Shown here piece by piece: positions 59,534 to 63,528 of a stretch of DNA of 64,000 bases (within the stretch, counting starts at the first letter, position 1; every line of letters starts with the position of its first letter). The stretch is from positions 3,624 to 67,623 of the forward strand of contig CALXVM010000007.1 in NCBI GenBank assembly GCA_944392105.1. Reading direction: 5' to 3'. The DNA comes from an uncultured Clostridia bacterium (GTDB taxonomy: Bacteria; Bacillota; Clostridia; TANB77; CAG-508). Made by a program: the position numbers and the translations under genes. The notes beneath the pieces were generated by a model that was not told where the DNA came from, did no database searches, and saw nothing but the letters and a program-made list of their open reading frames with translations.

Positions 59534-59659
59534 CTATCTTTTCTCTGTATTTTTAGAGTTTTTCTTTGAAAAACTTTCGCATAAAGTCTTAGTTGGTAAT
59601 TGTGGTTCTGGTGGTGGAGTAACTTTATCCACTTCTTTTTTTGTATCACTATCTGACAT
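59534..59659 (-). CDS. 41-codon ORF with strong RBS, last gene of the IetAS-like operon
   Basis: Not in the ORF track. AGGAGGTGA 7 nt upstream of ATG 59659. MSDSDTKKEVDKVTPPPEPQLPTKTLCESFSKKNSKNTEKR. Begins 14 nt after the stop of 59673..60242. Confidence 0.45.
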   Translation of the reverse strand: MSDSDTKKEVDKVTPPPEPQLPTKTLCESFSKKNSKNTEKR

Positions 59660-59672
59660 AATAATTCACCTC

Positions 59673-60242
59673 CTAGTATAAAATATTAATATCTATAGGC
59701 TTCTTTACTGTTATACAATATATTCCTATAATACCTATTATAATTAAAGATGTTATAAAAAAATTTATAAATCTCATAGTTTCTTCATTCCTAATATCAT
59801 TTACTCTAGCATTTTCTTCACTACATTGAATATACATTTCTAATAACTTTTCTTCCTTTTTTCTTTCTATTAAAGAATCTATTGTTTCTTCTCCATTTTT
59901 AAAATATTCATAATATTGCTTATAATATCTTTCTAATTCAACAAATGCTTTTTTTACTTCTATTGAATTATCTAAATATTTATATTCTTTACCATGATTA
60001 GCCTTATATAAGTTATATATATTAATTCCTAAAATTATCATTATCAATACTATAAATTCAAATTGTATTATAGGATTAACATTTGAATTTTGATACAAAT
60101 TCTCTATTTCAAAAACAACTATACCTCCAAGTACTGTTAAAAGTCCTATATGAGTTGATATTTTGGAATTTAAATTTTCTTTTCTAGCAATTTCAAACAA
60201 ATATAAATCTTTATAAAATTCTACATTATCTATTTTGTTCAT
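59673..60242 (-). CDS. 3-TM membrane protein (possible effector) downstream of the S8 protease
   Basis: 189 aa. TM segments HIGLLTVLGGIVVF, FEFIVLIMIILGINIY and FFITSLIIIGIIGIYCI with a long helical linker. Confidence 0.55.
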   Translation of the reverse strand: MNKIDNVEFYKDLYLFEIARKENLNSKISTHIGLLTVLGGIVVFEIENLYQNSNVNPIIQFEFIVLIMIILGINIYNLYKANHGKEYKYLDNSIEVKKAFVELERYYKQYYEYFKNGEETIDSLIERKKEEKLLEMYIQCSEENARVNDIRNEETMRFINFFITSLIIIGIIGIYCITVKKPIDINILY

Positions 60243-60269
60243 TCTCTTCTCCTTTCACGAATTTTAACA

Positions 60270-62498
60270 TTATTCAAATTCAATTTCTTCTTCTGCCTTA
60301 TTATATATATCAATTTGGTTTTCAACATCAACTTTATTTACTAGCCATCCTCTAAGCAAACATAAATTAATAAATTCATCAATTCTATTCACTCCGTTTA
60401 TTTCTCTAAGTGTTACTACTATCCCAAACTTAATTCCTTCTCCATCTCTTTTTTCTAATCTTTCTTTTGTTTTTATACTTATGCCCCACATACCATTTCC
60501 ATAAGCTTTCTTTGGTCTTATACCTTCTTTATATATCTGCCTTATATGTTTTACATTATCCCACTTTCGATAATATTTTCTTGCATTTTCTTCTCTTAAA
60601 TAATGTTCTCCGTCTATTGATTGAGTATTTTCATTTATTGATAATATTCCTTTTTCTCCTATTCTTCCAAAATATATATCTAATTCTGTATTTGTATAAT
60701 CAACTCCTTGATTTCTAGAACAATTAGGAAAATAACACATTGTGGCTTTAGCTATAAATGGATGTTTATCTGCATATATTGGTACAGGAATATTGTAATT
60801 ATATGTATCATATTTTTCTGACTTACCAGATAAAATAAATTTTATTTCATTGTTAGATGTTTTTAAAATATTTTCGATTCTTTTTGGTATAACACCATAA
60901 CCAATCATACATGATAATTCATTTGAATTTTGTTCATCCCATGTAGTAGCAGAATCTATAAGTAATGCTTTTGCAACCTCTCTAGAGAATCCTAAAACTT
61001 CAATTAAATATGCCATTTTTCTAGCAACCCACGGTGCAGCAAATGATGTTCCTATAACTCTACCTTCACCAGTTGGTCCACATACTCTCATATATCTGTC
61101 TATATCTCCACCATAGTAGCTAATATCCGGTTTATTAAAAAATGATAAAACAATACCTTTTCTTGCATATGTGGCTGGCTCTCCTCTCATATTAACGGAA
61201 TTAACAACTAAAGAGTTTATTGAGTCAGCTGGTGAGCCTATTCTTTCTATATCATCTCTTGTTTTATTTGTTCCAGCAATAACAAATATTACATTATTTT
61301 CAAATTGGATTTTATCTAAATAAGCTGCTTCAGGTGATATAAAATTAGGATTTACTTCTAATGAAGACCCTAAAGAAAGATTCCACACATGTATATCTTT
61401 GTTATTTGAAACAATTTCTTCTATTGCTTTTAGAATTGAAAAAGAACTCATTTGAGTAGCTCTAGCCACCCCAAAATGTCTAACTCTAAACCTTCCACAT
61501 CCATCATCCATTTCCGGATTAATTTGCGGACCATCTACTATAATTGATGTCACTTCGGTTCCGTGTTCATAGTCCCTGTTTTCTATGGGTATATTCAGAT
61601 CTGTTTTATCAATAAAATCTACCCAATTAGAAAAATAAACTCTTTTATCAAATAATGTGTCAATTACTCCTATTGTAGGTTCGTTAGTAGGATCTGGTAT
61701 TGAAACTTGTACTACATCATCAGTCTCAAAAAAGTCCTCATAATTATAATTAGTTAAGTCACTTACTGCCATCGCTATTAAATATGGTGCATTATTTTTT
61801 AATATTTTCAGTTCATCTGGAGTTAAAAATACTGTTGTTTCATCTAATATTCTGGAAGAAAATATTTTTATTCCTATTTTTTCAAGTAGTTCTTTTGTAT
61901 CTATATCTGTTTTATATATTGTAATAAGAGCATTTTGAATTATATCTTCTTTTTCTTCCAAAATTGAAAACTTTTCAACATAAAACGAATCTACTATAAT
62001 GTTAACAAAATTATTCCTAGCAATATTATATTTGTCTATACTAATATTCTTTTTATTAATTTGTTCTATATTATAATAATTAATTTCATTGCCAAATTTT
62101 TCTGATACAATTTTTATTGACTCATTTATTCTATTAATGGTTTCAGCTAATATTTCCTTAGTTATATAATGTGTTATAATATGCTTTCTTTTGTCTCCAT
62201 CTGTAAATTTTGCTCCAACTATAGAGCTATTAGCTGTTTGACTTCCTTTTGAAAGGAATCCTTTAACTCTTCTACTTTTTGCTACAACATCTTTATAAAA
62301 CACACTTATTAATGCCCCATTTAAATATTTTTCTTTGTTCCAAAATTCTTGTAAATCTAATAATTGTTTTTCTAAATTTTTTAAATGATCAATTTCTACA
62401 TAATTTCCTTTAGGTAGATTTGATGGGCCTGGCTTAGAATTATTTGATTTTTGAAAAAATTTACCTTTTAATTGTAATAATTCATTCATTTTGATCAC
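60270..62498 (-). CDS. ietS: S8 (subtilisin-like) serine peptidase, IetS-like
   Basis: Catalytic triad contexts IGVIDT (Asp), EHGTEVTSI (His), GTSFAAPWVA (Ser). 742 aa. Overlaps the AAA gene by 17 nt. Confidence 0.75.
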   Translation of the reverse strand: MIKMNELLQLKGKFFQKSNNSKPGPSNLPKGNYVEIDHLKNLEKQLLDLQEFWNKEKYLNGALISVFYKDVVAKSRRVKGFLSKGSQTANSSIVGAKFTDGDKRKHIITHYITKEILAETINRINESIKIVSEKFGNEINYYNIEQINKKNISIDKYNIARNNFVNIIVDSFYVEKFSILEEKEDIIQNALITIYKTDIDTKELLEKIGIKIFSSRILDETTVFLTPDELKILKNNAPYLIAMAVSDLTNYNYEDFFETDDVVQVSIPDPTNEPTIGVIDTLFDKRVYFSNWVDFIDKTDLNIPIENRDYEHGTEVTSIIVDGPQINPEMDDGCGRFRVRHFGVARATQMSSFSILKAIEEIVSNNKDIHVWNLSLGSSLEVNPNFISPEAAYLDKIQFENNVIFVIAGTNKTRDDIERIGSPADSINSLVVNSVNMRGEPATYARKGIVLSFFNKPDISYYGGDIDRYMRVCGPTGEGRVIGTSFAAPWVARKMAYLIEVLGFSREVAKALLIDSATTWDEQNSNELSCMIGYGVIPKRIENILKTSNNEIKFILSGKSEKYDTYNYNIPVPIYADKHPFIAKATMCYFPNCSRNQGVDYTNTELDIYFGRIGEKGILSINENTQSIDGEHYLREENARKYYRKWDNVKHIRQIYKEGIRPKKAYGNGMWGISIKTKERLEKRDGEGIKFGIVVTLREINGVNRIDEFINLCLLRGWLVNKVDVENQIDIYNKAEEEIEFE

Positions 62499-63528
62499 CT
62501 TTTATTTCCCTTGAAACTTGACTCTTTGAAATTCCAGTTAATATTTCAATTTCTCTAACTGTAAAACCTAAATCTTGTAATTTCTTTAAATTATCATTAT
62601 TGTTTTTATTTACTAGGGCAAATAATCTCTTTAAATAGTCATATTCATCGTTCGGATTGCTAAACGCTATTGAAGTTTTTATAAGATTTTTTAATTCGCC
62701 TGGATATGGTATATCTGTCATCAAATTCATTATTTTTCTAAATAGTTTGATATTTCTTCCTGCAAATTTAAATTTATCTAACGCTTCATTTAATATGTAT
62801 TCAGATATTTCTATTAAATCCTCTTTTTCATATCTATTAAAATTAATTACTGAATCAAATCTTCTAATTAAAGCTTTATCAAATGACTCATATAAATTTG
62901 TTGTAGCTATAAAAACAATATTTTCATTTAGTGTATCTAATCCTTTCAGAATTGCAGAAGTTGCTCTCCCCATTTCTCTCAAATCATTTTTATTAATCCT
63001 ATCTAACGCAATGGAATCTATTTCATCAAATAAAATAATTATTTTTTCTGGATGTGATAGATTTTGTATTTCTTTAAATAATTCCGAAATATTTTTAGAC
63101 GTTTGTCCTAGTTTGCTGTCTATTACAGTGTCAAATTCTACAGAAAACAAATCTCTATCTAATATACGTGCCAACTGCTTTACTGTTTCAGTTTTGCCTG
63201 TACCAGGAGCTCCTTCAAATAAAAATTTATTTACTCCTGCATTATGCCCTACAGCATTTATTATACCTATAATATCTTCCTTTATTTTTTCTGGTAATGG
63301 TAGAGATGCTTGATTTGGTTCTATTTTTGTAAAAAAAGATAAATCATAATTTTGGCCTTGTGGTATAAAAGTATTAACATTAGACAATAGTGCCATTATA
63401 TATTCAGATAATTGAAAATCTCCAGTTTCATCAAACTCTCTAGCTATTTCATAAGCTTCATTTCTGAAAGCTTCATCATTTTTTTCAGAATAGTATTTAA
63501 TTAAATTTAATACATTTTTCTTTTTCAT
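62482..63528 (-). CDS. ietA: AAA+ ATPase with C-terminal HTH, IetA-like
   Basis: Walker A GAPGTGKTE, Walker B IILFDEIDS, sensor-1 ATTN, arginine finger region LIRRFD. C-terminal LGFTVREIEILTGISKSQVSREIK. Confidence 0.75.
   Translation of the reverse strand: MKKKNVLNLIKYYSEKNDEAFRNEAYEIAREFDETGDFQLSEYIMALLSNVNTFIPQGQNYDLSFFTKIEPNQASLPLPEKIKEDIIGIINAVGHNAGVNKFLFEGAPGTGKTETVKQLARILDRDLFSVEFDTVIDSKLGQTSKNISELFKEIQNLSHPEKIIILFDEIDSIALDRINKNDLREMGRATSAILKGLDTLNENIVFIATTNLYESFDKALIRRFDSVINFNRYEKEDLIEISEYILNEALDKFKFAGRNIKLFRKIMNLMTDIPYPGELKNLIKTSIAFSNPNDEYDYLKRLFALVNKNNNDNLKKLQDLGFTVREIEILTGISKSQVSREIKGDQNE

Follow-up and report, generated by a model that had tools for sequence, protein, structure and literature searches.

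The window analysed here is a stretch of 64,000 nucleotides (nt) from an uncultured Clostridia bacterium (contig CALXVM010000007.1), and our subject is a block of its minus strand, at 59534-63528, in which four tightly packed open reading frames (ORFs) were confirmed: the genes of IetA and IetS, an AAA+ ATPase and a subtilisin-like protease, and behind them the genes of a small protein with three transmembrane (TM) helices and of a 41-codon peptide. IetAS is a plasmid-stabilising toxin-antitoxin (TA) pair that was later shown to be anti-phage, and a first reading made from the sequence alone had proposed that the two additional genes extend it. In the present study, we found that genes one and two make up a canonical IetAS system of two genes, whereas genes three and four are a discrete cassette distributed independently of IetAS. 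Taken as a whole, the block is quite probably a canonical IetAS joined to an autonomous, presumably co-transcribed two-gene module of defence islands, which would not be a functional part of IetAS. In the best-supported view, this mobile module has lodged, within one family of islands, at the 3' ends of several defence or TA operons that differ from each other.

Organization of the locus

The promoter-like site and the four genes are arranged as follows.

63545..63573, minus strand: promoter-like site TTGACA-17-TATAAT, a 12/12 match to the sigma-70 consensus, upstream of ietA
62482..63528, minus strand: ietA, AAA+ ATPase (348 aa; Walker A motif GAPGTGKT, Walker B motif DEID; PADLOC, Pfam)
60270..62498, minus strand: ietS, S8 subtilase-like protease, given as the longest ORF with a GTG start (PADLOC IetS, Peptidase_S8)
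59673..60242, minus strand: cassette gene 1, helical membrane protein of 189 aa with three TM helices and its own Shine-Dalgarno (SD) sequence
59534..59659, minus strand: cassette gene 2, hydrophilic, proline-rich peptide of 41 codons (TPPPEPQLPTKTLCESF core), behind AGGAGGTGA

The site at 63545..63573 is likely the promoter of the whole minus-strand block, judging by its match to the consensus. The 189-aa protein with three TM helices lies at 60242..59673, just where it had been described, its gene starting 27 nt past the ietS stop. Between the stop of the TM gene and the ATG of the 41-codon ORF there are 13 nt, one fewer than had been counted, and the strong SD announced ahead of this ORF is present (TAGGAGGTGA).

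IetA and IetS

ietAS was first described as a TA pair, with the IetS protease as toxin and the IetA ATPase as antitoxin, and it acts against phages by a mechanism that is still unknown (PMC13069673). The two genes of the window, adjacent and co-oriented with the ATPase first, were typed by profile hidden Markov models (HMMs): IetA matched the PADLOC IetA HMM (9.9e-41, residues 4-346 of 348) and Pfam AAA (2.3e-26), and IetS matched the PADLOC IetS HMM (1.8e-63, residues 254-730), four further IetS models below 1e-20 and Pfam Peptidase_S8 (5.7e-33). The proposed assignment to IetA and IetS was thereby borne out. The intact catalytic triad that had been read in the protease proved to be D280, H312 and S485, which, together with N411, are invariant across 13 homologues (alignment A4). 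For IetA, the GAPGTGKT and DEID motifs can be read directly; the C-terminal helix-turn-helix (HTH) is plausible by sequence, but no Pfam HTH model matched it.

The start of ietS deserves a comment. A 742-aa protease overlapping ietA by 17 nt holds if translation begins at GTG 62498, but the true start is most likely ATG 62489: M4 does not vary, a length of 739 aa is shared by homologues and gene calls, and the overlap, ATGAATGA, would then be 8 nt.

Compared with reference IetAS, the pair shares the A-then-S order with overlapping stop and start, intact Walker A/B motifs and Asp/His/Ser triad, near full-length PADLOC matches to both proteins, and residence in a defence island. In contrast, its scores lie far under the NCBIfam equivalog cut-offs (IteA, 110 bits versus 510; IteS, 159 bits versus 900), and it is followed by two co-oriented genes that are outside the family definition. 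Equivalog-level identity to the reference anti-phage IteA/IteS was therefore not reached by these cut-offs, and the pair represents a divergent clostridial branch, a relative at the family level rather than an equivalog. This branch is populous, since more than 7,700 IetS homologues were found at E < 1e-10, as a rule near 60% identical and with a length of 738-742 aa.

The cassette behind other genes

Close relatives of the TM protein form 12 clusters only in 5.8 billion proteins, and their genes were found in five contexts (L-numbers denote the loci compared, P-numbers proteins).

Behind IetAS: L004-L007
Behind a 338-aa MqsA/SocA_Panacea protein, antitoxin-like: L002, L003, L020, L102
After ThsA_Macro of Thoeris, the cassette start overlapping the stop codon of the ThsB TIR gene by 4 nt: L011-13
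Behind VanZ: L014
Behind an uncharacterised 96-aa gene: L015

Without IetAS, the cassette accordingly follows at least four other upstream genes, and in distant bacteria it occurs as a stand-alone pair. In every close-family context listed (IetAS, Panacea, ThsB, VanZ and the 96-aa gene) a gene of 38-41 codons begins 5-14 nt past the TM stop. The TM protein behind IetAS (P0003) and that behind Panacea (P0004) differ at 2 residues; the system upstream of them was exchanged recently.

The boundaries of the cassette are sharp. Blastn homology to the window starts at 60255 or 60243, that is, at the ribosome-binding site (RBS) or the start codon of the TM gene, so the cassette does not bring an upstream region along; at the other side, homology ends 10-25 nt past the small ORF (end points listed, 59511-59559). 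The DNA downstream is a shared backbone with a Fic/HTH gene. An intact Fic gene of 352-356 aa (Fic/HTH_24) directly follows the cassette in L002, L020, L102 and L023-25, and two features beyond the cassette in the window belong to this stretch.

59397-59510, no strand assigned: AT-rich palindromic indel of 114 nt that holds a hairpin; absent from close relatives, in which the flanks align
59124..59339, minus strand: remnant of the 3' end of the Fic/HTH gene (blastn to L002 3321-3539 and L020 7859-8102)

The remnant matches the end of the 352-aa Fic gene in both loci, and most of this gene is gone from the lineage of the window.

Decay has also reached the cassette itself. In L016-19 IetAS is intact, while a deletion takes the TM residues past 130 and the entire peptide; a frameshift or a stop breaks up the TM gene of L020 and L103. 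The neighbours are defence genes throughout, including the type I-B CRISPR-Cas system of the window. Searches of phage and plasmid collections with the region and the TM protein (megablast and tblastn) found no homologue of the latter and brought up only the IetAS of a C. perfringens plasmid; tblastn with the family consensus gave no match either, for which low-complexity masking is a possible cause, and a scan of IMG/VR with alignment A3 yielded no confirmed relative.

As for the hairpin, it stands at 59432-59460 (AT-rich stem of 14 bp, loop of 5 nt) instead of 59443-59470 as first placed. It lies outside the conserved unit, because it is inside the 114-nt indel that close relatives lack. A role as operon terminator was ruled out: there is no T-tract, the terminator scan made no call at 59432-59460, and the hairpin is unconserved within a lineage-specific palindromic indel. 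The palindromic segment, which folds at -35.8 kcal/mol, is single-copy within the window; it is present in the window, L004 and L005 and precisely missing from L002, L007, L009 and L020. Insertion of a small palindromic element may explain it, or it may serve this lineage as a bidirectional stop.

IetAS loci without the cassette

We scanned one genome per species for IetS, which gave 354 relatives, and inspected the 80 best loci, calling a member of the TM family present when the wider-family profile HMM matched within 2.5 kb downstream of IetS. Among these 80 of 354 loci, a TM-family member lay downstream of IetS only in L021 and L023-L026, all from uncultured gut Clostridia whose IetS is at least 91% identical; the cassette was absent from the approximately 65 informative loci with IetS at or below 63% identity. 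In the other loci with enough downstream sequence, the next gene varied in strand, size and distance (-56 to 1,034 nt), and where it was recognisable it was defence-like (HsdS-like, HsdR-like, HD, UvrD-like); no conserved third component was seen downstream of IetS in these remaining surveyed loci. One candidate was considered and rejected: the third gene of Streptococcus loci (362-403 aa, 43-44 nt downstream of IetS) looks by its sequence like a specificity subunit of type I restriction-modification and therefore belongs to a neighbouring system. In the closest plasmid-borne IetAS, that of C. perfringens (72% nt identity), the match spans the two IetAS genes only, a recombinase comes next, and the TM gene is lacking.

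Across the 80 best IetS loci and the cassette contexts, the extra genes hence do not co-vary with IetAS. The extended system put forward by the sequence-only reading is not supported, in view of three observations: the extra genes are limited to the clade with IetS at least 91% identical, the cassette stands behind other genes, and IetAS is intact where the cassette is truncated. The same reading had named an unrelated phylogenetic distribution of the extra genes as the outcome that would count against it, and essentially such a distribution was found.

The proline-rich peptide, separate and fused

The 41-codon ORF is a real gene, as had been supposed. Several independent assemblies list it among their gene calls, it has a strong SD, and its core, (T/V)PP(P)EPxLPxKxxCExF, is retained where the neighbouring gene is 66-71% identical. 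The ratio of non-synonymous to synonymous substitution rates (dN/dS) of the peptide is 0.11-0.32 against L007, L011 and L015, with third-position changes in excess, similar to that of the TM gene (0.17-0.36). The peptide follows the TM gene in every locus that has downstream sequence and an intact cassette. An alternative-frame ORF of 39 codons (59530-59649, minus strand) overlaps the peptide gene and is open in L011 and L015 too; it has no SD, and it is probably a by-product because third-position substitutions favour the PPPEP frame.

The arrangement reaches beyond the close family. Distant contexts were inspected for four TM-family members, 26-31% identical to the window protein and including two isolates of Flavobacteriia (Aequorivita and Constantimarinum), and all four carried an ORF of 35-43 codons that begins 3-8 nt past the TM stop and opens with 6-10 prolines (e.g., MSKQKPPPPPPPPPSRQLNEG...). 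An upstream spacer of 150-250 nt precedes these distant pairs (L104-L110), and among their neighbours are genes for Patatin and SMODS+S_4TM, for GmrSD and an HD protein, and for a RES-domain protein. In L104 (6565-6672) and L106 (6560-6673) the polyproline micro-ORFs, of 35 and 37 codons, directly follow the TM-family gene, and the gene calls of Aequorivita viscosa and Constantimarinum furrinae omit them; this class of micro-ORF is systematically under-annotated.

In at least 30 of the 146 best wider-family representatives, proline-rich sequence is fused in frame after the third TM helix. The fused tails align with the motifs of the window peptide (P0129, ...PPEPPQAPELRTINETF; P0025, ...PEPMKLRTLNESF), and 25 of the 30 fusions retain a Met where the separate peptide would start. 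Because of this split and fused relationship, the TM protein and the peptide are expected to act together, and the peptide is no accessory of IetS; by the comparison of sequences, it appears to be the cognate partner of the TM protein and not of the protease. The idea that IetS has its substrate here found no backing, since neither the TM protein nor the peptide gives any sign of being one.

A K-G-G motif (AAA GGA GGx) recurs among wider-family representatives (e.g., P0043, P0039, P0127, P0104, P0054), in fusions a few residues before the junction Met and in split TM proteins at the C-terminus (L011, ...KGGI*). It resembles an in-frame SD, and the peptide may therefore also be initiated internally in fused genes.

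The membrane protein family

A profile search of 1.84 billion representatives gathered 746 clusters (at 50% identity) with full-length matches at E <= 1e-3. No Pfam family covers the window protein, and none was consistently matched by the 86 wider-family members searched; a match to Pfam 8xMP in 6 of the 86 was treated as noise from TM segments. A first AlphaFold2 run with 9 close sequences gave a pLDDT of 62 and was unusable, and the model used was built from 86 sequences (pLDDT 93.5, pTM 0.83). It predicts helices at 6-47, 57-82, 93-114 and 121-179, which accommodate the hydrophobic stretches 31-47, 57-79 and 158-178, and the conserved polar residues Y14, E17, R20, K21, Y87, Y89, N144, N148, D149 and R151 fall in predicted cytoplasmic parts. 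Foldseek against PDB and BFVD returned generic long-helix or BAR-like folds only (best E 0.04, TM-score below 0.46), and a sequence-profile search of PDB gave weak matches to the TM segments of Orai only (E 0.03), no solved SLATT structure being matched.

Weak similarity to known effectors was met repeatedly. Against the Pfam gathering threshold (GA) of 27.1 bits for SLATT_6, the window protein scored 10.5, P0008 26.7 and P0005 19.1, so that neither the window protein nor P0008 reached it; among the wider-family members 1 of 86 matched. Further weak matches were to PADLOC PycTM (12 of 86), to the CBASS '2TM effector' (10 of 86, best 1.4e-6) and also to RTasSLATT, and the protein matches a PHROG of unknown function (phrog_36961, 2.1e-10). 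We regard the relationship with SLATT/2TM proteins as a lead and not as a finding.

Expression

Chicken-gut metatranscriptomes contain the locus. In three fragmentary runs, contigs span the ietS/TM junction and end inside the small ORF, and in a fourth run one contig covers everything, for which DNA carry-over is possible. These contigs are consistent with read-through from ietAS. In the gut Clostridia of this clade, the cassette most likely depends for its expression on transcripts that start at the ietAS promoter and run on, and co-transcription is what we infer. Runs X3 and X4 have contigs that stop at 59602 and 59612, inside the PPPEP codons of the small ORF; chance, sparse coverage or a 3' end associated with stalling could account for this.

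A possible function and its alternatives

What might such a pair do? Most likely, we infer, the TM module acts on membranes as an effector or toxin and is under the control of its proline-rich tail or peptide. In this scenario the membrane protein would be a SLATT/2TM-like membrane-perturbing effector or toxin, and the proline-rich tail or peptide would gate it as a tethered or separate inhibitor or sensor. PPP and PPE motifs are pause sites at which ribosomes depend on elongation factor P (EF-P), and the polyproline run could tie synthesis of the peptide to EF-P and to intact translation. A far-reaching version, which we consider distinctly unlikely, would make the three-TM protein and the polyproline micro-protein an undescribed abortive-infection or TA-like module found across phyla, in which a SLATT-like pore is checked by the peptide, the EF-P- and translation-sensitive synthesis of the latter lets the module fire upon perturbation by a phage, and the whole spreads as a promoterless cassette into the 3' ends of defence operons.

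Two kinds of known systems invite comparison. In CBASS and type VII Thoeris, SLATT proteins are considered effectors that breach the membrane (bioRxiv 10.64898/2025.12.03.692087). With such SLATT/2TM effectors (CBASS 2TM, PycTM of Pycsar, ThsH of type VII Thoeris, DRT10 SLATT) the cassette protein shares small size and a helical membrane build, its predicted model being compatible with a TM hairpin and flanking conserved cytoplasmic helices, as well as residence in defence islands, adjacency of some loci to TIR or SMODS genes, and the weak HMM matches (SLATT_6 up to 26.7 bits; PycTM/2TM 1e-5 to 1e-6 in some members). Unlike them, it has a third TM helix, the window protein stays under every curated threshold, no partner making a nucleotide signal is consistently present, and there is a conserved proline-rich micro-protein or tail, a feature that was not found described for SLATT proteins in the literature searched. 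With TA modules that have a membrane toxin, the cassette has in common two small, translationally close genes that are mobile and reside in defence or TA islands, the larger of which, the putative toxin gene, is repeatedly inactivated (L016-19, L020, L103) while its neighbours persist; it differs in that the clostridial copies have no promoter of their own and that many homologues have the two partners as one fusion protein, an uncommon state among TA pairs. The earlier proposal of a membrane effector therefore stands as far as it is compatible with the weak 2TM/SLATT-type matches, but not as part of an extended IetAS.

Several points weigh against an autonomous, peptide-controlled module. The RNA contigs are undirected and DNA carry-over is possible. 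The likeness to SLATT/2TM proteins lies under curated thresholds, and TM composition could drive the matches. The predicted topology, N-terminus inside with three TM helices, places a fused tail outside the cell, and the separate peptide has no signal sequence, which makes it awkward to assume the same role for the fused and the split form. The distant contexts number only four. Furthermore, the four-gene order with its 27-30-nt spacer is kept in at least 5 species-level metagenome-assembled genomes (MAGs), so a lineage-specific functional tie of the cassette to IetAS is possible, with low probability, and an IetAS variant with an essential extra gene exists in ietHAS (PMC13069673).

Among the alternatives, the one that survives best, though we deem it unlikely, is a non-lethal membrane function of a mobile element, such as superinfection exclusion or an injection block with the proline-rich part as a spacer through the wall, or a function unrelated to phage defence. 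The C-out topology predicted from hydropathy and positive-inside reasoning would indeed put the fused proline-rich tail outside; there is the match to phrog_36961, and the neighbourhood of L106 is non-defence. On the other hand, the split peptides carry no signal sequence, repeated inactivation of the TM gene is more typical of costly or toxic genes, and most neighbours are defence or TA genes.

Rather improbable is the thought that the cassette encodes a nucleotide-signal-responsive effector of the SLATT type, like ThsH or the 2TM proteins of CBASS and Pycsar, whose partner would be a TIR protein or a cyclase and which would have come to lie beside IetAS by shuffling of the island. TIR+SLATT systems are known (bioRxiv 10.64898/2025.12.03.692087). 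The overlap of the cassette start with ThsB_TIR in L011-13, the SMODS+S_4TM genes immediately downstream in L107/108 and the weak SLATT_6, PycTM and 2TM matches speak for it, as does a TIR-like 474-aa gene two genes downstream in L023-25, recognised by its FISYSW motif only. Yet no SMODS, TIR or cyclase gene is near the cassette in the window, L002, L014, L104, L106 and L109; L011 already holds a complete ThsA_Macro/ThsB pair; 10.5 bits for the window protein is far from the GA; and the conserved proline-rich partner would be left unexplained.

The genuine four-gene IetAS variant, with the TM protein as a downstream effector, or as a substrate that IetS would release or activate, and with the peptide modulating it, strikes us as quite improbable. 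It would be in keeping with the tight same-strand spacing without a terminator between the genes, with the RNA contigs that span the ietS/TM junction and with the order retained in the MAGs mentioned above, and its recruitment of extra genes has a precedent in ietHAS (Liu-DS4), a validated variant in which an IetAS operon includes a functionally required third gene (PMC13069673). In ietHAS, however, the extra gene encodes an SNF2 helicase whose requirement was demonstrated by mutation (PMC13069673), whereas the extras of the window are a membrane protein and a peptide with independent distribution. Against a four-gene system, moreover, a near-identical cassette stands behind unrelated genes, IetAS has outlasted cassettes that fell into decay, none of the more distant IetS loci examined carries the cassette, and fusions of peptide and TM protein occur in other lineages, found without reference to IetAS.

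Finally, the 41-codon ORF might be open by chance, or might act only in cis, stalling ribosomes without giving a functional product; this view could appeal to its short length, to the overlapping frame open in the window, L011 and L015, to the EF-P-dependent pause site and to the contig ends in the PPPEP codons, maybe a coincidence, but it is highly implausible in view of the conserved residues after the prolines (LPxKxxCExF; RxIxE[GSN] in others), the dN/dS, the strong SD and the in-frame fusions that preserve the peptide sequence.

Significance

For IetAS, the locus is a caution that close spacing and co-orientation in a defence island do not by themselves make a larger system, and the two-gene description stands. 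As a by-product, a membrane family of 746 clusters has come to light that has no Pfam family, no match to a solved structure and an obligate, proline-rich partner of about 40 residues, which annotation pipelines often miss and which the gene calls of the two flavobacterial isolates examined had passed over. Defence islands in Clostridia, as well as in two isolates of Flavobacteriia, contain the TM/peptide pair, a module undescribed before, and in the literature searched we found no description of a proline-rich or polyproline small protein tied to anti-phage systems or defence islands. If it should prove to be a peptide-gated membrane effector, it would add a new type of module to the defence repertoire and provide a clear example of a conserved polyproline micro-ORF whose link to EF-P can be tested. 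That the cassette is sharply bounded at the RBS also illustrates the shuffling of promoterless gene pairs between defence operons.

The surrounding defence island

The right-hand part of the window is a defence island, as indicated by a type I-B-like CRISPR-Cas set at 43148-49993 (minus strand) with Cas6, a Cas8b-like protein with CXXC_CXXC, Cas7/DevR, Cas5 and Cas3 (HD and helicase). Between it and the cassette, 53064-56094 encodes proteins of 823 aa and 197 aa without any Pfam match. At 57172-57834, on the plus strand and hence opposite to the cassette, lie TnpV (3e-42) and a 99-aa gene, which are found together at the flank of the island in L004, L021 and L102 too and suggest the backbone of a Tn4451-like mobilisable element. 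A 285-aa protein with N-terminal TM helices is encoded at 57980-58837 (minus strand); its C-terminal IDLIFDVKYW recalls PD-(D/E)xK nucleases, although nothing in Pfam, PADLOC or NCBIfam matched the protein, and it is conserved beside the cassette in L004, L005 and L021. In L023-L025, which are mouse-gut MAGs, the 474-aa protein at 8249-9673 starts ...RVFISYSWSS... and is TIR/SEFIR-like by motif only.

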